A stretch of 64,000 bases of DNA, taken from the NCBI GenBank assembly GCA_902787685.1, contig CADAHH010000004.1, positions 27,677 to 91,676 on the forward strand, written 5' to 3'. Position 1 is the first letter of the stretch. Each line of letters opens with the position of its first letter. The position numbers and the translations under genes are program-made. This DNA is from an uncultured Eubacteriales bacterium (GTDB taxonomy: Bacteria > Bacillota > Clostridia > TANB77 > CAG-508). The notes beneath the pieces are model-generated. The model had not been told where the DNA came from and did not search any database. It saw nothing but the letters and a program-made list of their open reading frames with translations. Of the stretch, positions 1 through 8,815 are shown in pieces.

Positions 1-51
1 TCATATTGTTCTCTAAGTGCTTCCATTGATTACTGTTCCTCCTTTCTTAAA

Positions 52-357
52 TTAATTTATTTTAGCTCCACATTTTTTACAAACTCTAAATTTCTTATCA
101 TTTTCAATTACATAACCAATTCTAGTTGCTTTTCCACACTTTGGGCACACAATGTTAACAATTGATGAATGAATTGGAAATTCTGAAGCCATTATTCCAC
201 CTTCTCTATTAGGTGCTGCTTTAACATGTTTTTTTCTAATATTAATACCTTTTACTATAACTTTTTCAGTTTTAGGTATAACTTCTAGAACTTCACCAGT
301 TTTACCTTTATCATTTCCAGATAAAACCATTACGTTATCACCTTTTTTGATTTTCAT
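52..357 (-). CDS. rplX: 50S ribosomal protein L24 (uL24); C-terminal tail carries CPKC...CKKC, a zinc-ribbon-like motif
   Basis: KGDxVxVxxGxDKGKxGxV KOW motif; sits after rplN in spc-operon order; ATG of rplE lies at position 4 running off the window. Confidence 0.85.
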   Translation of the reverse strand: MKIKKGDNVMVLSGNDKGKTGEVLEVIPKTEKVIVKGINIRKKHVKAAPNREGGIMASEFPIHSSIVNIVCPKCGKATRIGYVIENDKKFRVCKKCGAKIN

Positions 358-637
358 TTAAGGTTTTCCTCCTTTTTTACTATTTTATATTTACTGTTTC
401 TTAGATAAATACTCTCTTAAATTTGAAGTTATCAAAAATATAATTTGCTGTACTTTAATTGTATATACATTTCTAGTTTTCAAAATTTTGAAAACTAAAA
501 AGCTACGGTTAATATTTTGTAAAATTCAGCTAGCCTAAGGGCTATCTTAATTTAACAAAATTTAAACCTATGCATCTTTAATCTGTAAAATACAAATGTC
601 CACTGATTTATAATGCAATACTCTATTTATCATCATG

Positions 638-760
638 TTTCCCGTTTTCAAAAGAATGGTTATATTGCAAGGCAAGATTTTACGAAAAAACCGGAGCGTA
701 CATATTGTACGTGAGGATTTTTGAGTGAAATCTTAACACAGCAAGATGGCCATTATTTTG
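638..760. repeat. About 125-nt structured repeat element, copy 1, in the unusually long rplN-rplX spacer
   Basis: About 80% identical to 3096-3222; internal hairpin CGTACA-TAT-TGTACG with compensatory changes versus copy 2. Confidence 0.6.
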
Positions 761-764
761 AAAA

Positions 765-1133
765 CTATAGTACTTCTGGTGCTAATGAAAGAATCTTAAG
801 GTATTCTCCATCTCTTAATTCTCTAGCAACAGGTCCAAATATACGTGTTCCTCTAGGTGTTTTATCTTCTCTTATAATTACTGCTGCATTATCATCAAAT
901 CTAACATAAGAACCATCTGCTCTTCTAATAGGGTTTGTAGTTCTTACAATAACTGCTTTTACGACATCACCTTTTTTTACAACTCCACCTGGTGTTGCTT
1001 CTTTAACAGATGCAACTATTATATCTCCAATACCAGCAGTTTTTCTATATGATCCACCTAAACATCTTATACACATTAGCTTTTTAGCTCCAGTGTTATC
1101 GGCTACGTTTAGGATACTTTGCTGTTGTATCAT
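765..1133 (-). CDS. rplN: 50S ribosomal protein L14 (uL14)
   Basis: MIQQQS...[12 protein letters not shown]; true start at the internal Met with GGAGA RBS; the listed ORF is 5'-extended. Confidence 0.9.
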
Positions 1134-1153
1134 ATTAATATCTCCTTCCCAAT

Positions 1154-1420
1154 CTATTTTATGTCTGCTTTTTCGATAATCTCTACTACTCTCCATCTCT
1201 TATCTTTAGAAAGAGGTCTAGTTTCCATAACTTTAACTTTATCTCCAATATTACAGCTATTATTTTCATCATGTGCTTTTAATTTATATGTTCTTTTAAC
1301 TATTTTTCCATAAATATTATGTCTTACTTTTCTTTCAACAGCAACAACTACTGTTTTATCCATTTTATTTGATGTAACAATACCTATCATTGTTTTACGA
1401 AGATTTCTAGTTTGTTCCAT
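1154..1420 (-). CDS. rpsQ: 30S ribosomal protein S17 (uS17)
   Basis: KMDKTVVV...AHDENN motif; operon position. Confidence 0.85.
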
Positions 1421-1628
1421 TGTTTACCCCTTTCTTCTCAGCAATCTTTCTTTCTGTTAGAATAGTATTAATTCTAGCAATATCTTTTTTAACTTCTCTA
1501 ATTTTCATAGGGTTATCTAAAGAATGTGATGCTAAGCTAAATTTTAATTTGAATAATTCTGTTTTTAATTCACCTAATTCTTTCTCCAATTCAGGTGAAG
1601 ACATTTCTTTTAATTTATTTAATTTCAT
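1407..1628 (-). CDS. rpmC: 50S ribosomal protein L29 (uL29)
   Basis: ELxxLKxELFxLKF motif; operon position; overlaps the rpsQ start by 14 nt. Confidence 0.8.
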
Positions 1629-2056
1629 TAATTTTCACCCTCCTCGATTGTTCTTTTAACAAATTTTGTTCTAACAGGTAATTTATTTGCAGCTAAACGT
1701 AATGCTTCTCTAGCAGTTTCTTCAGAAACCCCAGCAATCTCAAACATTATTCTATCTGGTTTTACAGCTGCTACCCAAAATTCTGTATTACCTTTACCTT
1801 TACCCATACGAGTTCCAGCAGGTTTTCTTGTAATAGGTTTGTCTGGGAATATTTTAATCCAAACTTTACCATCTCTTTTCATATAACGAGTCATTGCAAC
1901 TCTGGCAGCTTCAATTTGGTTTCCTGTAATTAATCCTGCATCAGTAGCTTGTAAACCAAATTCTCCATAAGAAACTGTATTTCCTCTTGTTGCTCTACCT
2001 CTATTTCTACCTTTTTGTACTTTTCTATGTTTTGTTCTTTTTGGCATTAATGGCAT
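1628..2056 (-). CDS. rplP: 50S ribosomal protein L16 (uL16)
   Basis: [11 protein letters not shown]...GKGKG motif. Confidence 0.9.
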
Positions 2057-2712
2057 TATTGTTCTCCTCCTTCCATTTTTTTAGTAGGAAGAACTTCTCC
2101 TTTATATATCCAAACTTTTACACCGATTTTTCCATATGTAGTATTTGCTTCTGCAAATCCATAATCAATATCAGCTCTTAAAGTTTGTAATGGAATATTT
2201 CCTTCTTTATAGAATTCAGTTCTTGCCATATCTGCTCCACCTAATCTACCAGATACTGCAGTTTTAATTCCAGCAGCTCCTGCTTTTAGAGTTTTTTGCA
2301 TACATTGTTTCATGGCACGTCTGAATGAAATTCTTCTTTCCAATTGTGAAGCAATATCTTCTGCAACAAGTGTTGCATCTAAACTTGGATTTTTTACTTC
2401 AACAATATTTAAATTAACATCTTTACCAATTAATTTTTTAATATCTAATCTTAATGCTTCTGCTCCAGCTCCACCTTTTCCAATTAAAATTCCAGGTTTT
2501 GCAGTATAAACATTAACTTTTACTGATTTTGCAGTTCTTTCTATTTCAATATTTGCAATTCCAGCTTCATATACTTTTTTCTTTAAAAATTTACGTATTT
2601 TTTGATCTTCTATTAAATAATCTGCAAAATTTTTGTCATCTGCATACCATTTAGATTTCCAATCTTTAATTACGCCTAATCTTGCACCTAGTGGGTGTAC
2701 TTTTTGTCCCAT
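2056..2712 (-). CDS. rpsC: 30S ribosomal protein S3 (uS3)
   Basis: MGQKVHPLG...KH domain; operon position. Confidence 0.9.
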
Positions 2713-2719
2713 ATTGTCC

Positions 2720-3073
2720 TTATGCCTCCTTTTCCTCTAATTTTATTGTTATGTGACTTGTTCTTTTTCTGATTCTAACTGCTGAACCTTTTGCAGCAGG
2801 TCTAATTCTTTTTAGAGTTGGACCTTGATTTGCATAAATCTCAGAAATATATAATTTATCATGTTTCATATCATGATTATTTTCAGCATTTGCAATTGCT
2901 GATTTTAAAAGCTTTTCAATAATTTCTGATGATGCTTTTGGTGTAAACTTAACTATTGCTAAAGCTTCATCTACATTTTTTCCTCTAATTAAATCTGCAA
3001 CAATTTTAACTTTTCTAGATGAAATTCTTGCATATTTTAGAGTTGCTTGAGCTGTTTTTACTTCTGCTTCCAT
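2720..3073 (-). CDS. rplV: 50S ribosomal protein L22 (uL22)
   Basis: [10 protein letters not shown]...RISSRKVK; start taken at the internal Met; the listed ORF is 5'-extended into the repeat element. Confidence 0.85.
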
Positions 3074-3095
3074 TTTTTCTATCCTTTCATAATAA

Positions 3096-3222
3096 TATTT
3101 ATTTTCCGTTCGCGGAAGAATGGTTATATTGCTAGGCAAAATTATATGAAAAAACCGGAGTGTGCTTTGTGCACATGAGGATTTTTGAATAAAATTTTAA
3201 CAACGCAAGATGACCATTATTG
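3096..3222. repeat. About 125-nt structured repeat element, copy 2, filling the rpsS-rplV spacer
   Basis: Homologous to 638-760; hairpin TGTGC-TTTGT-GCACA covaries with copy 1. Confidence 0.6.
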
Positions 3223-3228
3223 CACGAA

Positions 3229-3537
3229 CTATTTTTTAGTAGTTTTTTCTCCTGCATGACCTTTGAATGTTCTCGTAGGAGCAAACTCTCCTAATTTATG
3301 ACCAATCATTTCTTCTGAAATGTATACAGGAACATGTTTTCTTCCATCATGAACTGCGATTGTATGACCAACAAATTCTGGATAAATAGTTGAAGCTCTT
3401 GACCATGTCTTAATAACTTCTTTTTTGTTTTCAGCATTCATAGCTTGAATTCTTTTCATAAGCTTTTTATCCACATATGGTGCTTTTGGCTCTTTTCTCT
3501 TATTAAGATCTTTTTGTGCATTTTCCTTTTTTGCCAT
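3229..3537 (-). CDS. rpsS: 30S ribosomal protein S19 (uS19) with a short N-terminal extension
   Basis: [13 protein letters not shown]...[17 protein letters not shown]. Confidence 0.9.
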
Positions 3538-3562
3538 TTTTATTCTCCTTTCTCAAATTTTA

Positions 3563-4387
3563 TTATTTTCTTCTCTTAACTATAAATTTATTTGATTGTT
3601 TTTTCTTATTTCTTGTCTTGTATCCAAGAGCTGGTTTACCCCAAGGTGTTAATGGTCCTGCGTGACCAATTGGAGCTCTACCTTCACCACCACCATGTGG
3701 GTGATCTACTGGATTCATAACAGATCCACGTACTTCTGGTCTCCATCCCATATTTCTTTTTCTTCCTGCTTTACCAATTTTTACGTTTCCGTGATCTGAA
3801 TTTCCAATTACTCCTATTGTAGCTCTACAATTTGCAAGAACTAATCTCATTTCTCCAGAAGGAAGTCTTACGTGTGCGTATTTTCCTTCTTTTGCCATTA
3901 ATTGTGCACTTTGTCCTGCAGCTTTAACTAATTTTCCACCTTGACCTGGATTTAATTCTATATTGTGGATTAAAGTACCAACTGGTATAGAATTTATTTC
4001 CATACAATTTCCTGGTTTTATATCTGCTGATTTTCCAGATATTACTTTATCACCATCTGTTAATCCTTGTGGTGCTAATATATATGCTTTAACTCCATCT
4101 GAATATTGAATTAAGGCTATATTTGCGCTTCTGTTTGGATCATATTCGATTCCAATTACTTGTGCTTCCATATCGTCTTTTTGACGTTTAAAATCAATTA
4201 TTCTATATTTTTGTCTGTTTCCTCCACCTTGATGACGTACTGTTATTCTACCATAGTTGTTTCTTCCTGCTTTTTCTTTCTTTGTTGTAAGTAAAGATTT
4301 TTCAGGTGTCTTTTTTGTTATTTCTGCAGAATAATCTAATACTGTCATATTTCTTCTTGAAGGTGTGTATGCTTTAAAATGTTTCAT
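3563..4387 (-). CDS. rplB: 50S ribosomal protein L2 (uL2)
   Basis: [16 protein letters not shown]...HPHGGGEG motifs; GGAG RBS. Confidence 0.92.
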
Positions 4388-4424
4388 TATAAATCTTCTC
4401 CTTTTTTACTAATTTGTACGGATA

Positions 4425-4485
4425 TTTTCCTGCTCCGCCTGCAGTTAAAATTTATTATCCTAGTTTTTTCTAGATATTTTTGATG
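4425..4485. repeat. 60-nt direct repeat, copy B, just upstream of rplB
   Basis: Near-identical to 5481-5545 (core CAGTTAAAATTTnTTnTCCTAGTTTTTTCTAGATATTTTT). Confidence 0.7.
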
Positions 4486-4604
4486 CTTTTTACTCACGTG
4501 ATTCTGATAATTTATCTGTTGCTTCAGAAATATTAGAATTTGGATGTTGTATGGTGGTTGCTGTATAGCATGCCAAAGAGTTCTTAAATGTTCTTTTAGC
4601 ATCT

Positions 4605-5426
4605 TCAACAACACCGACGTTTCTTAAAGTATTCAAGAATTGTATTTGAAGCTTTAAGAAATTCTTCTATATCCTGTGCATTTAAATCTCCAGATTCATA
4701 GTAGTTTGTTATTTTTTCTGATACTGTTAATACTTTTCTCTTTATAAGATTAGCTTTATCATACATTTCATCACACCATTTCAATCTGTCTATTATCCAT
4801 GATGCTGCTTCACAATTTCCTTTTCCATCATTAACTACTATATTTTCTATTTGCTTATAAAAACCATTAGAATCAAAATTTGAATTGTCTTTTAATTTTT
4901 TAAGTTTTTCTATATTATTAGCTAATATATCTATAAGTTGATATACAAGCACTTTTAGATAATTATATACCTCGTTAAATGGATCTAGCTCATCTTTATC
5001 ATCTAGATAATCACTTATTGCACTGATCTTCTTCTCAATTGTACCATTTCTAACTTGGCTTTGAGCTTCTTCTGTAAAATTTTTTGTATCCAAGAAAATG
5101 CTCCTTATAATGTTGTCATCATAATCTTTTTCCCAATCATTTGCTTCAATAAATATCTCTCCACCTATTGATAATTCTCTGGTTATTTTATCAACTATAT
5201 TTCTAAGATAGTAATAAAAATTATTATCTTGTGAAATCTCAAGTATTCTAGCAAAATTAAACAATCGTATTAACCATCTTAAATCGTCAACATCCTTTAG
5301 GTGTTCTCTATAGTTCTCTTCTCTATAACCTTTAGAAGCTTTAGAATAATATATAGGACCACCTGGTTTTGAAAAACATTCTATTAAAGTACCCGGAAAA
5401 CTTCTGTAACTTGGACTATCATACAT
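4605..5426 (-). CDS. Hypothetical 273-aa protein inserted in the S10 operon; no recognisable domain
   Basis: Long ORF with AAGGAG RBS; bracketed by the 60-nt direct repeats; in-frame CGG three codons before the stop. Confidence 0.6.
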   Translation of the reverse strand: MYDSPSYRSFPGTLIECFSKPGGPIYYSKASKGYREENYREHLKDVDDLRWLIRLFNFARILEISQDNNFYYYLRNIVDKITRELSIGGEIFIEANDWEKDYDDNIIRSIFLDTKNFTEEAQSQVRNGTIEKKISAISDYLDDKDELDPFNEVYNYLKVLVYQLIDILANNIEKLKKLKDNSNFDSNGFYKQIENIVVNDGKGNCEAASWIIDRLKWCDEMYDKANLIKRKVLTVSEKITNYYESGDLNAQDIEEFLKASNTILEYFKKRRCC

Positions 5427-5480
5427 ATTGAACTACTCCTTTATCTTGACTATCATATTAATTAAACCTACAAAATAAGC

Positions 5481-5545
5481 ATTTTTCCGGCTCTTCCTTC
5501 AGTTAAAATTTGTTTTCCTAGTTTTTTCTAGATATTTTTTATTTT
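5481..5545. repeat. 60-nt direct repeat, copy A, between the two inserted ORFs
   Basis: See 4425-4485. Confidence 0.7.
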
Positions 5546-6021
5546 TATTGTGGTTGTTCTTGAGTATTGTTATCTTTTTTTATATCTGGTGTATTTATTA
5601 TTTGTATAATTTCCTTCAATCCAGTTGATATACTCGTAAGAGATTGATTATTTAAGGATTCAAAATTTGAACTTTTCAAAGTGGTTTTAATACTACTTAA
5701 ACTTCCTTTAATCGAAGCTTCTAAATTTCCTCTATTTATATTGAGTTTTGAAATAAATTGCTCATATGAAGTATCTTGACTTTCTCCCATTGTAATATCA
5801 CCTGAACAACATTCCTGTATTTTACTAATTCTTATTAAAATATCCTTTAAATTTTCAACTGAAAGTTTGTCAAGTTTTCCTTGTAAATCTTGGTTTATTA
5901 TAACTTCTCCTGTATTTGGTTGTTCATAATACACCTCTAATCGAAGTATTGATTCTTTAATTTCGTTTATTATATTATCTTTAATTGTTTCATAAGGTAC
6001 TTGCATTCCATTAAGTCCCAT
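5545..6021 (-). CDS. Hypothetical 158-aa Ser/Asn/Gln-rich protein, translationally coupled to rplW
   Basis: ATG lies 9 nt after the rplW stop with a GAGGA RBS inside the rplW 3' end. Confidence 0.55.
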   Translation of the reverse strand: MGLNGMQVPYETIKDNIINEIKESILRLEVYYEQPNTGEVIINQDLQGKLDKLSVENLKDILIRISKIQECCSGDITMGESQDTSYEQFISKLNINRGNLEASIKGSLSSIKTTLKSSNFESLNNQSLTSISTGLKEIIQIINTPDIKKDNNTQEQPQ

Positions 6022-6030
6022 ATTGTCCTC

Positions 6031-6378
6031 CTACACTCCTGTGAAGTCTTCTATTGAGTCTTTGAATTTCTTAGTTCCTTTTGTTTCCTTTCCACCTTTA
6101 GCTAAGTATGTAGATGCTTTTGGATTGATATCTATTGTAACTATTGCTTTTTTCCAGCTTGATGTCATTCCTTGATGATATCCTACTCTTTTCTTTTTTC
6201 CTTTTACCATCATTGTATTAACATTTAATACTTTTACATTAAAAAGTTTTTCAACAGCATTTGCTATTTCAACTTTTGTTGCTTTTTTGTTAACTTTGAA
6301 TGTGTATTTTCCATCTTGTAAACCATTGTTACTTTTTTCAGTAACTACTGGTGCTATTATAATTTCTTCTGCTACCAT
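6031..6378 (-). CDS. rplW: 50S ribosomal protein L23 (uL23) with an extended C-terminus
   Basis: VVTEKS...KYTFKV motif; operon position. Confidence 0.88.
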   Translation of the reverse strand: MVAEEIIIAPVVTEKSNNGLQDGKYTFKVNKKATKVEIANAVEKLFNVKVLNVNTMMVKGKKKRVGYHQGMTSSWKKAIVTIDINPKASTYLAKGGKETKGTKKFKDSIEDFTGV

Positions 6379-6380
6379 AA

Positions 6381-7004
6381 TTATGCATACACCTCCTCTA
6401 ATTTCTTAACAGTATCAAGTGTTAGAACTAAATTAGTGTATTTTAATAAATCATATACATTTATATTGTTTGCAAGTATTGCTTTTGCATTTACTATGTT
6501 TCTTGTAGAAGCTTCAACATTTAAATTCTTTTCTGGTAATATAACTAATGTTTTTCCTTCTAATTTTAAATCTGCAAATGCTTTTACCATTGATTTTGTT
6601 TTTATTTCTGATAATTCTAATTTATCAACTACTTTTAATTGGTTTTCTAATACTTTAGAACTTAATACTGATCTTATTGCTAATTGTCTTTCTTTTTTAT
6701 TTACGCTATATCTGTATGAACGTGGTTTTGGTCCTAATGCTATACCACCTTTAATCCATTGTGGTGCTCTAATTGAACCTTGTCTAGCACGTCCAGTTCC
6801 TTTTTGTCTCCATGGCTTTCTTCCACCACCACGAACTTCTGCTCTTGTTTTTGTACTTTGTGTACCTTGTCTTTGATTAGCTAAGTAATTTAATAATACT
6901 TCATGAACTATAGTTTCATTTGGTTCAATTCCAAATACATTTTCATTTAGTTCAACATCGCTAACTTTTTTACCATTTATATCATATACGTCTACCTTTG
7001 GCAT
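6381..7004 (-). CDS. rplD: 50S ribosomal protein L4 (uL4)
   Basis: GGGRKPWRQKGTGRAR motif. Confidence 0.9.
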   Translation of the reverse strand: MPKVDVYDINGKKVSDVELNENVFGIEPNETIVHEVLLNYLANQRQGTQSTKTRAEVRGGGRKPWRQKGTGRARQGSIRAPQWIKGGIALGPKPRSYRYSVNKKERQLAIRSVLSSKVLENQLKVVDKLELSEIKTKSMVKAFADLKLEGKTLVILPEKNLNVEASTRNIVNAKAILANNINVYDLLKYTNLVLTLDTVKKLEEVYA

Positions 7005-7022
7005 TTCGTATTTCCTCCTTTC

Positions 7023-7661
7023 CTAATTTATAGCCTTTACAGCTGATTTTATTTTTAGGATTGCACCTTTTGCTCCTGGTACACTTCCCTTTACTAATAT
7101 AACATTTTTGTCCATATCAACAGCTACTACATCTAAATTTTGAATTGTAACTGTAACTGATCCCATATGTCCTGGAAGTTTCTTTCCTTTAAATACTCTA
7201 CCTGGTGTAGATGTTGGTCCCATTGAACCTGGTCTTCTGTGATACATTGAACCATGTCCCATTGGTCCTCTGTGTTGTCCATGTCTTTTTATAACACCTT
7301 GGAAGCCTTTTCCTTTTGATGTTCCTTGAATATCAACTTTTTCTCCGGTTGCAAATATATCTGCTTTTACTTCATCTCCAACTTTGAAGTTTGAAATATC
7401 TTCTAATCTAAATTCTCTTAAATGTTTTTTGTTTTCTAATTTAGATTTAGCAAAATGTCCTGCTTGAGGTTTATTGATATGTTTTGCTTTTACTTCTCCA
7501 TATCCTAATTGGATGGCATTGTATCCATCTGTTTCAACTGTTTTTACTTGTGCAACTACACAAGGTCCAGCTTCTATAACTGTAACTGGAACGACATTTC
7601 CTTTTTCATCAAATATTTGTGTCATTCCTAATTTTTTTCCTATAATTGCCTTTTTTTCCAT
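7023..7661 (-). CDS. rplC: 50S ribosomal protein L3 (uL3)
   Basis: [14 protein letters not shown]...[10 protein letters not shown] motifs. Confidence 0.9.
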
Positions 7662-7850
7662 TTTTTCTCCTTTACTATTGGCTAATATTTATATTTGCAC
7701 ATAATTTGTGTAATATTAGCTTGGTTTTTGAGTTTTTAATAGTTTGCATCTCCACTCATCACAAATTCATCGCTTCGCTCGAATTTGCTGCTCCGATGCA
7801 TAAGTTATAACTAACCATCTCGACTCGCTATCGCTCATCGATATGCTAAT

Positions 7851-8174
7851 TTATAGCTTAATTTCGATATCAACACCAGCTGGTAATTCAAGCTTCATTA
7901 ATGAATCAACAGTTTTTTGTGTTGGATAAAGAATGTTGATAAGTCTTTTATGTGTTCTCATTTCAAATTGTTCTCTAGAATCTTTGTGTTTATGTGGAGA
8001 ACGTATAACTGTTACAACTTCTTTTTTAGTTGGTAGTGGAATAGGTCCTGAAACTTTTGCACCTGATTTTTTAGCAGTTTCTACTATCATTAAAGCAGAC
8101 TGATCTAAAATTCCAGATTCATAAGCCTTTACCTTTATTATAATTTTCTCACTAGTAACTACATTGTTTGCCAT
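7851..8174 (-). CDS. rpsJ: 30S ribosomal protein S10 (uS10)
   Basis: IRIKLKAYD-like N-terminus; first gene of the S10 operon; the 190-nt rpsJ-rplC spacer carries a partial GC-rich repeat. Confidence 0.9.
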
Positions 8175-8409
8175 TGCTATTTCCCTCCTTAATAATATTT
8201 TTGTACTTTTTAGCTTGGCAAGCTGTATTGCACCCTGGTGTTTTGTATTTTACCATTATAAAATCCCAAAATTGCATGAAAACTTTTGGGATAAGTGCTT
8301 TAAATACTCTTACCGCCTGGTCTTAGCCACGACATACTCCATCGAAGTTCCCTCCATCCTTGTGTTTTCACAAGGTGTAGCCACATTCGACTTCAACGCT
8401 AAATTTCAT

Positions 8410-8446
8410 ACTGCAATAGTATATAATAATTTTTATCTTATGTCAA
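8410..8446 (-). promoter_or_regulatory. Candidate sigma-A promoter of the S10 operon on the minus strand (TTGACA, 17 nt spacer, TATACT), followed by an about 235-nt leader
   Basis: Reverse complement of 8418-8446 reads TTGACA-17 nt-TATACT; GC-richer leader before rpsJ. Confidence 0.4.
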
Positions 8447-8587
8447 TAGTTTTTTGATGATTTTTTTTAAAATATTGTTACTAACTTATAGATTTAAAAT
8501 TTTAAAAGCTTAAATATACTATTTTTTAATCACTTGGTGTCGAAATCTTTATGTACCTGTAATTTTTCTTACGAAAAGTTCAGCTAC

Positions 8588-8700
8588 AATGTAGATTTCT
8601 CCAGTTGCCCTGTGCTTCGCTTCGGTTTGCTGTTCATTGTTAAGGCTCTGCTTGTTACAATGGCAGTATGCGTTTGAGCTGTTCGGCTTACGCGTGATTT
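8588..8700. repeat. GC-rich about 100-nt dispersed element (family D), copy 1
   Basis: About 85% identical to 14029-14125; core GCTTCGCTTCGGTTTGCTG...TTGTTAAGGCTCTGCTTGTTACAATGGCAGTATGC; partial relative at about 7766-7800. Confidence 0.6.
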
Positions 8701-8815
8701 CAAAATAGTACATTTAAGCTTTTTCTATAAAACCATTATCAATACCAATATGCTAATTTTAAGAATGAATTTACTAATTTTATTTGTTTTTATAATTCAT
8801 CTGTAGTACATGATA

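Follow-up and report, generated by a model that had tools for sequence, protein, structure and literature searches.

A hypervariable ORFan hotspot and a structured RNA motif between rplW and rplB in the S10 operon of uncultured Clostridia

The S10 operon of an uncultured Eubacteriales bacterium (contig CADAHH010000004.1) was found to carry two open reading frames (ORFs), ORF158 and ORF273, between the ribosomal protein (r-protein) genes rplW and rplB. The analysed stretch of 64,000 nucleotides (nt) is referred to below as the window; positions follow its numbering unless a locus is named, and the operon reads on the minus strand. Few bacterial gene clusters are as conserved and as tightly packed as the S10 operon, and the adjacency of rplW and rplB is treated as near-universal; here, this junction ranks with the most variable parts of the genome. 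It is a hypervariable hotspot of ORFan genes, which was the main point missed by an earlier sequence-only reading of the same DNA. We propose, with a probability of about 0.7, that a native structured motif ahead of rplB adjoins an insertion hotspot, that the inserted genes are independent cassettes stacked by recombination and that, as a tentative best guess, these cassettes encode conflict proteins. The novelty lies in the structured RNA motif upstream of rplB and in the hotspot of ORFan cassettes that a widespread family of uncultured Clostridia carries within its S10 operon. A literature search found no prior description of either the motif or the hotspot; mechanistic kin are already known, namely leaders of r-protein genes on the one hand and, on the other, hotspots of recombination or arrays of cassettes, among them the PeSL regions and rAID-1 discussed below.

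The slot between rplW and rplB in the window and its relatives

In the window, the insert is anchored on the left by the 3′ end of rplW and on the right by rplB (Table 1). An AGGAGG Shine–Dalgarno sequence (6027–6032) overlaps the rplW stop codon TAG (6031–6033) and is followed by a 5-nt spacer and the ATG of ORF158, which lies 9 nt past the TAG. The position of the insert, both ORFs, the coupling and the ribosome-binding sites had been described correctly in the sequence-only reading. A direct repeat of 67 nt with 85% identity (4425–4491 and 5483–5549) was also confirmed, and its 32-nt core pattern matched exactly twice in the 64 kb, with zero matches expected (100 shuffles). ORF273 has a copy on either side, one towards ORF158 and one towards rplB; the repeat therefore brackets only ORF273, as the text of that reading had it, and not the entire two-gene insert announced in its title. 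At the GC content of the insert (27.6%), a stop-free run of at least 158 codons arose in 1 of 2000 shuffles and one of at least 273 codons in none. Neither ORF158 nor ORF273 matched Pfam, PADLOC, PHROGs or PDB sequences, which bore out the earlier statement that they contain no recognisable domain. Relatives were rare: six for ORF273 and four for ORF158 among 5.8 billion proteins, with only five more for ORF273 in a profile search of 1.84 billion representatives. All relatives with a readable context, including all three traced relatives of ORF158, lie between rplW and rplB.

Genome and metagenome collections were scanned for the core pattern of the repeat, yielding 3 contigs of metagenome-assembled genomes (MAGs) and 13 metagenome contigs, in which all matches fell in the rplW–rplB gap with differing contents. 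Loci labelled L001 and onward are related contigs, P0020 and similar labels denote further L23 lineages, and the host group consists of uncultured gut and rumen Clostridia. In this large family, L23 always has 115 amino acids (aa), including a lineage-specific C-terminal extension of approximately 20 aa (...YLAKGGKExKGxKKFKDSIExFxGV), and L23 proteins of this length made up at least 120 clusters at 77%–97% identity. The slot consists of the few bases that separate the rplW stop codon from the repeat ahead of rplB. Depending on the strain, it was empty or held a short ORF, a palindromic repeat or unrelated ORFan cassettes, one to five in number. For example, L010 was empty (rplW, 14 nt, repeat, rplB), single ORFs of 85–163 aa were found in L014 and L019–L022, two ORFs (104 and 107 aa) in L009 and five cassettes over 3.9 kb in L017. 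All cassette ORFs had the orientation of the operon. The 31 cassette ORFs formed 17 families by single linkage, one of which was a network of mosaics sharing modules, and none of the 31 contained a transmembrane-like segment. No domain above the cut-off was found when about 20 representative cassette proteins were scanned against Pfam, and among the proteins scanned the families had no Pfam, PADLOC, PHROG or PDB match; with PADLOC, this covered seven cassette proteins besides ORF158 and ORF273. None had a paralogue elsewhere in the window. Thus, the synteny check in relatives that the sequence-only reading had called for revealed a gap occupied by unrelated ORFans from strain to strain.

The clearest comparison is that with L009 (MAG UBA9784). 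Over 4.9 kb, its flanks are 96%–97% identical to those of the window, and the two L2 proteins do not differ (synonymous divergence, dS, 0.089). The homology stops at 6027, returns at 4476, where the motif starts, and the genes in between are unrelated. At this slot, strains of what is essentially a single species thus have nothing in common. The locus could serve as a strain marker, and pipelines that assume synteny of r-protein operons should take it as a warning. Cassettes also cross lineages, since between the window and L002 the dS of ORF158 is 0.12 and that of the adjoining rplW is 0.82.

ORF158 and ORF273 had been regarded as a two-gene cassette and possibly an addiction pair, and this idea did not survive the comparison. 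The loci L002, L003–L006 and L027 have the order rplW, ORF158-like gene, repeat, rplB without ORF273. Conversely, relatives of ORF273 (L001, L017, L023 and L025) occupy other array positions with other neighbours. That of L017 is the fourth of five cassettes, that of L023/L024 directly follows rplW and is fused to a new N-terminal module of 125 aa, and that of L025/L026 comes after two different ORFs (133 and 105 aa). Since each occurs without the other, they are separate cassettes rather than a gene pair, and the arrangement of the ORF158-only relatives agrees with the earlier suggestion that the motif and ORF273 were a later addition.

The structured motif ahead of rplB

The repeat corresponds to a structured element of approximately 60 nt. 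On the sense strand, a 5-bp hairpin (H0) with an A-rich loop is followed by two interleaved helices, S1 and S2, forming an H-type pseudoknot whose third loop is A-rich (Table 1). All examined loci that extended to rplB, from at least ten L23 lineages, had an intact copy ahead of this gene. In L010 and L028–L037, which are free of cassettes, the repeat stands alone between rplW and rplB; the proposal that it is a native spacer sequence was therefore upheld. Six further lineages carried a diverged motif ahead of rplB with compensatory differences. Of these, P0020 (10 contigs, some labelled human gut) has a compact operon with a 98-nt rplW–rplB spacer and no ORF, P0039 has the motif and a palindromic repeat, P0058 a palindromic insert and then the motif, and P0109, P0119 and P0097 short ORFs of 56, 53 and 61 aa, respectively, and then the motif. 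The single short ORF in the slot of such distant lineages was rich in Lys and Glu and stable across the contigs of a lineage. In L038, L018 and L019, the stop codon of the cassette ORF falls inside H0.

A covariance model built from H0 and S2 gave 44 matches in 186 kb, all in the rplW–rplB gap. Across 33 high-scoring copies, 99.1% of cells were paired and 9 of the 14 pairs had changed on both sides; none of 500 shuffles reached these values, and sliding the 3′ partners lowered pairing to 25%–53%. S1, which was not included in the model, was paired in 100% of cases with two compensatory variants. G-U pairs occurred only on the sense strand, which points to an RNA element within the operon mRNA. 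The motif matched no Rfam family at gathering thresholds, nor at E ≤ 1 over positions 1–8700. The structure became clear only after the diverged lineages were added, as the fold of the single sequence was weak (z −0.69). An apparent S2 covariation first seen in the internal copy of the window was misleading: in L025, the same 3′ variant faces a canonical 5′ half, and the 3′ end is therefore cassette flank rather than a compensatory change.

Copies adjoining rplB differed in conservation from those inside arrays. All rplB-proximal copies scored at least 73 bits, whereas 6 of the 11 internal copies scored below 60 bits. The internal copy of the window (sequence ...CTGAAGGAAGAGCCGGAAAAATGC) retains H0 and has lost the pairing of both S1 and S2. 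This pattern indicates that constraint acts on the copy adjoining rplB, and the motif would thus most likely act in cis on rplB and the genes after it, perhaps as a leader bound by an r-protein or as an element of RNA processing or stability. Supported as it is by covariation, this RNA lends itself to tests of r-protein binding. A mechanism that simply blocks the ribosome-binding site of rplB is unlikely, given that an insert of about 150 nt is tolerated between the motif and rplB.

Among known systems, the motif most resembles r-protein leaders, as it is a conserved, covarying RNA directly upstream of rplB, on the sense strand and inside the S10 cluster, with only the rplB-proximal copy constrained. 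Its nearest counterpart is a candidate L2 r-leader reported upstream of rplB-rpsS-rplV-rpsC in Alphaproteobacteria (Eckert and Weinberg 2020, PMC7247131). Unlike that leader, the present motif combines a hairpin with an H-type pseudoknot, lacks an Rfam match, belongs to another lineage, tolerates about 150 nt before the rplB start and is duplicated together with inserted genes. Other identities were considered and rejected. The suggestion that the repeat is a duplicated promoter or terminator failed because a consensus scan found neither in it. A −1 frameshift signal was discarded since neither the A AAA AAC in the hairpin loop nor an AAAUUUU stretch has the right distance to the pseudoknot or is kept in other lineages. 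Likeness to a boxB/boxA-type antitermination site was confined to the hexamer UUUAAC, and that to a dif/Xer site was superficial, the variable loop length arguing against a recombinase spacer.

Acquisition, stacking and possible roles of the cassettes

No terminator-like site was found between 3400 and 8600 and no promoter-like site inside either motif copy by consensus scan, and promoter-like matches within ORFs of the operon region (31) were not above chance (23.7 ± 4.7 in shuffles). These results fit co-transcription from the S10 promoter, as the sequence-only reading had supposed; the promoter-like site upstream of rpsJ, which matched the consensus at 11 of 12 positions, is presumed to serve the whole operon, cassettes included. 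The first cassette would be translated through coupling to rplW by means of the Shine–Dalgarno sequence overlapping the stop codon, and later cassettes from Shine–Dalgarno sequences of their own. In this way, accessory genes can exploit the promoter of an essential operon.

The boundaries of the cassettes bear on how they arrive. The right boundary was always the start of the motif. The left boundary of the first cassette lay within approximately 10 nt of the rplW stop; cassette-bearing relatives mostly share GAGG directly after the TAG, and the empty site has AATC at this place. Left junctions within internal motif copies varied (positions of about 27, 50, 57, 59 and 63), and L025 becomes homologous to the window at 5534, a point within the internal motif. 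L018 has the arrangement of the empty L010 with one cassette and one further motif copy added. In L017, two cassettes are preceded by a decayed copy of the rplW 3′ end of about 95 nt that includes TAGGAGG (shuffle p < 0.002). A similar remnant ahead of the ORF273 cassette of the window was not significant. Among the ORF translations of the 64-kb window, no recombinase was recognised on reading and no tyrosine, serine or HUH signature was found by a crude motif search. Taken together, these boundaries and the absence of a recombinase signature from the window fit allelic replacement and unequal or homology-facilitated illegitimate recombination better than precise site-specific capture. Replacement and stacking of cassettes thus probably proceed through recombination without a dedicated integrase. 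On the right, the anchor would be homologous (motif and rplB), and on the left it would be the rplW 3′ end or another motif copy, sometimes with an illegitimate join; recombination between such anchors would bring a motif copy with each stacked cassette.

A comparable case is that of the minimal mobile elements of Neisseria, islets or hotspots flanked by conserved genes and exchanged through homologous recombination. The slot shares with them unrelated contents between conserved flanks, clean breakpoints and transfer between lineages, but it lies in an essential, co-transcribed r-protein operon, its first gene is coupled to rplW, and its stacked units are separated by a structured RNA motif. 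In the hyperplastic regions of T4-type phages, promoter-early stem-loop (PeSL) cassettes have been described (Arbiol et al. 2010, PMC2839356). Both systems repeat a short conserved motif between ORFans, and insertions, deletions and replacements between close relatives map to the copies; here, the breakpoints of the window against L009 lie at 6027 and at 4476, the latter being the motif start, and the one against L025 lies in the internal motif. In contrast to PeSL, which consists of a sigma-70 promoter and a terminator, the present motif contains neither, and it resides in an essential bacterial operon rather than in a phage. A phage origin was also rejected, as the motif and the relatives of ORF158 and ORF273 were not found in viral contigs and no BFVD fold match was obtained.

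The cassette proteins appear to be real, soluble, mostly helical and very fast-evolving. ORF158 is soluble and acidic and probably folds as a helical bundle, as a confident model was obtained from only five sequences. ORF273 is all-helical, its AlphaFold2 model is poor (predicted local distance difference test score, pLDDT, 43) and the protein is a mosaic: it shares an almost identical C-terminal half with the L001 homologue, but not the N-terminal half. A C-terminal module of about 45 aa (FPY..LADVLEHGNPE...FKV.P.VEEA..EA.G) is common to otherwise unrelated cassette proteins and suggests a common partner, signal or recombination module. The earlier proposal of a defence, abortive-infection or toxin–antitoxin module found no backing, since searches of Pfam, PADLOC and PHROGs gave no homology. 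The pattern of fast-evolving, strain-specific, soluble, presumably highly expressed and arrayed proteins resembles that of immunity or other conflict proteins. ORF112 of L018 matched DUF2247 below the threshold (E 1.1e-4, 22.4 bits against a 25-bit cut-off), and DUF2247 is the Imm38 family of ‘heterogeneous polyimmunity loci’ (PMC3482391). Our tentative best guess is that the cassettes encode strain-specific, immunity-like conflict proteins that could exploit constitutive expression at ribosomal level. With ORFans of a few hundred bases and flanks that are known, the locus is a compact natural system in which gene gain and mosaic shuffling, and possibly also gene birth or immunity between bacteria, can be studied.

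Several observations weigh against parts of this account. The immunity idea draws on a single sub-threshold match in a different cassette, and no toxin or secretion genes were seen. The covariation alignment was fitted to a model containing H0 and S2, which biases these two helices, and many of the sequences are closely related, so that the independent compensatory events amount to approximately 6–8 lineages, not 33. In L010, L018, L020 and L043, the insert between the motif and rplB is a palindromic repeat of about 150 nt. The search for a recombinase covered only the 64-kb window, with the crude means given above, and the co-transcription and translation of the cassettes are deduced from sequence alone. 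For ORF158, the ratio of non-synonymous to synonymous divergence (dN/dS) of approximately 1.5–2.0 was not significantly above 1 in any pair (P 0.06–0.16), and its open frame could instead reflect selection against polarity. Finally, the codon adaptation of ORF158 and ORF273 (0.61–0.62) is below that of every r-protein gene (0.68–0.81).

The last two points, together with dN/dS values of 0.5–1.3 in other cassette pairs, would also be expected if the cassettes were functionless hitch-hikers, that is, neutral inserts whose frames stay open only because stop codons would cause polarity or mRNA decay. The extreme presence/absence variation, empty sites included, agrees with this view, and palindromic repeats in spacers of the same operons show that such spacers tolerate junk. 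However, the ORF158 frame remained open in only 0.6%–1.1% of simulations with random substitutions at the observed level, its indels are in frame, its hydrophobic columns are preferentially conserved (odds ratio 2.5, P = 0.018) and its helical-bundle model is confident. Moreover, the spread of ORF158 between diverged lineages, the strong Shine–Dalgarno sequences retained by later cassettes and the cost of arrays of up to 3.9 kb at ribosomal expression levels are difficult to reconcile with useless inserts. We therefore regard this explanation as unlikely, although it fares best among the alternatives.

A far-reaching extension of our reading, itself doubtful, is that the slot is an equivalent of integrons in Firmicutes, a gene-capture and expression platform in which the S10 promoter and a pseudoknot module for recombination or insulation store a strain-specific immunity or anti-conflict repertoire or nurse new protein-coding genes under assured high expression. 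Integrons and the integron-like rAID-1 immunity-gene arrays of Bacteroidales (Ross et al. 2019, bioRxiv 10.1101/471110) likewise hold promoterless cassettes in the same orientation, each with a repeated element, behind one promoter and with strain-variable content. In a more literal version, the motif would be a recombination site analogous to attC/attI, recognised as folded single-stranded DNA or as duplex, and a dedicated recombinase encoded elsewhere would site-specifically insert and excise circular cassettes of one ORF and one motif downstream of the S10 promoter. This version can point to the arrays of ORF and motif units downstream of one strong promoter, to the restriction of the motif to this locus, to its folding as an imperfect hairpin with DNA parameters too (z about −2.5) and to L018, which looks like L010 with one cassette flanked by two motif copies. 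Yet, boundaries are imprecise, with left junctions at different motif positions, and the motif sequence is conserved across copies and pre-exists in empty sites and in cassette-free lineages with compact operons. Loop lengths vary, the G-U pairs make the structure strand-specific, as expected for RNA, and the rplW-tail remnants point to unequal or illegitimate recombination. There is no RYYYAAC/GTTRRRY pair (the R″/R′ core of attC) in the motif, and the crude search of the 64-kb window, where rplW heads the array, found neither an integrase nor an XerD-like gene or other recombinase signature. The kinship with rAID-1 is further loosened by the fact that immunity homology is sub-threshold and limited to ORF112 of L018, with ORF158 and ORF273 matching none. 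Capture by a dedicated recombinase thus appears improbable, and recombination between the motif or rplB and the rplW 3′ end or other motif copies remains our preferred mechanism.

It is more doubtful still that the cassettes encode lineage-specific ribosome-associated or translation-modulating factors. Their location inside the S10 operon, the translational coupling of the first cassette to rplW, the lineage-specific C-terminal extension of L23 and the small, soluble, helical nature of the proteins could suggest a role at the tunnel exit, where L23 is situated, but near-conspecific strains carry unrelated proteins or none, which would be unexpected for partners of a conserved ribosome; evolution is very fast, and no homology to a known ribosome-associated family was found. 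An artefact, in which the repeated element caused chimeric metagenome joins, is scarcely credible: the related contigs are mostly short metagenome assemblies and repeats can mislead assemblers, but the same architecture recurs in over 40 contigs, which stem from many samples and were obtained with many assemblers and from many sources (ENA, JGI, Logan and NCBI MAGs), identical arrays were recovered independently (L003–L006, L009/L015, L023/L024 and L025/L026), and single-cassette arrays hold one motif copy and thus no repeat to drive a chimera.

Other features of the S10 region

The coordinates of the features described above and of minor features are listed in Table 1.

Table 1. Positions of genes, motif elements and minor features in the window and, where a locus is named, in related loci.
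Feature	Position	Strand	Basis or remark
rpsJ	7851–8174	−	S10 operon gene
rplC	7023–7661	−	S10 operon gene
rplD	6381–7004	−	S10 operon gene
rplW (L23, 115 aa)	6031–6378	−	Pfam PF00276, E 6.5e-31
Coupling junction rplW/ORF158	6022–6033	−	Direct sequence reading
ORF158, first-position cassette	5545–6021	−	
Internal, decayed motif copy	5470–5537	−	Covariance model, 59.2 bits
Shine–Dalgarno of ORF273, AAGGAG, 9 nt ahead of ATG	5436–5441	−	Direct sequence reading
ORF273, second cassette	4605–5426	−	
Short ORF, 48 codons, overlapping the ORF273 end	4490–4636	−	ORF map
Intact rplB-proximal motif	4412–4479	−	Covariance model, 92.6 bits
Hairpin H0 pairs	4470–4474 with 4459–4463	−	Window CUAG/CUAG; variants CGGG/CCCG, CGAG/CUCG, UGGG/CCCA, CUGG/CCAG
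Pseudoknot S1 pairs	4441–4444 with 4430–4433	−	Window CUGC/GCAG; variants CUGG/CCAG, CUGU/ACAG
Pseudoknot S2 pairs	4434–4438 with 4418–4422	−	Window GCGGA/UCCGU; variants GCGAA/UUCGC, GUGAG/CUCAC, AUGGA/UCCAU, GCAAC/GUUGC
rplB (L2), right anchor of the hotspot	3563–4387	−	Pfam L2 N and C domains; rpsS, rplV and the remaining genes come next
Promoter-like site upstream of rpsJ, TTGACA-17-TATACT	8418–8446	−	Consensus scan, 11/12 matches; best of the region
R2 repeats	3106–3231 and 613–772	−	Also in L007, L009, L010, L016, L018, L020, L021, L027 and L043
rpsJ–rplC spacer	7662–7850	−	About 190 nt
Weak S10-Clostridia leader match	8310–8404	−	Rfam, 21.3 bits (gathering threshold 35.1)
30-nt inverted repeat	8504–8533 and 8694–8723		90% complementary
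ORFan of 447 aa	8816–10159	−	
AddA-like helicase-nuclease, two parts	24491–26584 and 26831–28342	−	
Carriers of the ~45-aa module	L009:444–758, L016:94–969, L013:1471–1647, L025:546–863		Operon-sense coordinates; L009, L013 and L016 reverse-complemented relative to stored loci
Short Lys/Glu-rich ORFs of distant lineages	L038:2851–3021, L049:2151–2312, L052:2181–2366		56, 53 and 61 aa
76-aa ORF between rpsJ and rplC	L021:793–1023		

By eye, the short ORF overlapping the end of ORF273 resembles the ORF of 65 aa that follows the homologue in L001, as well as the C-terminal end of the 409-aa variant P0003; BLAST gave no significant match for it. Its coding status is uncertain, and it may be what is left of a variable module at the C-terminus or downstream.

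A separate family of palindromic repeats, R2, consists of elements of about 130–150 nt with terminal inverted repeats of approximately 33 nt and a central hairpin that covaries (GUGC/GCAC versus GUAC/GUAC). R2 was found only in spacers of the S10 and spc operons (rpsS–rplV, rplN–rplX, rpsN–rpsH, rpsH–rplF, rpsJ–rplC and motif–rplB), in both orientations, and looks like a miniature inverted-repeat transposable element. One end of R2 loosely resembles the core of the rplB motif; this likeness was not significant.

Upstream of the operon, the inverted repeat listed in Table 1 flanks about 160 nt just ahead of the S10 promoter and may be another small palindromic insert. The 447-aa ORFan lies directly upstream of that promoter, had no Pfam, PADLOC or PHROG match and is replaced by different genes in relatives. 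The weak match to the S10-Clostridia leader falls in the expected 5′ untranslated region of rpsJ. Further away, an AddA-like helicase-nuclease appears split, with a duplicated short peptide (GQKEPVPM) near the end of its upstream part, and may represent a frameshift, a pseudogene or an assembly error. Within the operon, the rpsJ–rplC spacer is unusually long and locally GC-rich, and a 22-nt stretch in it resembles positions 8614–8635. At the same junction in L021, a 76-aa ORF is present, indicating that a second S10 junction can carry an extra ORF.

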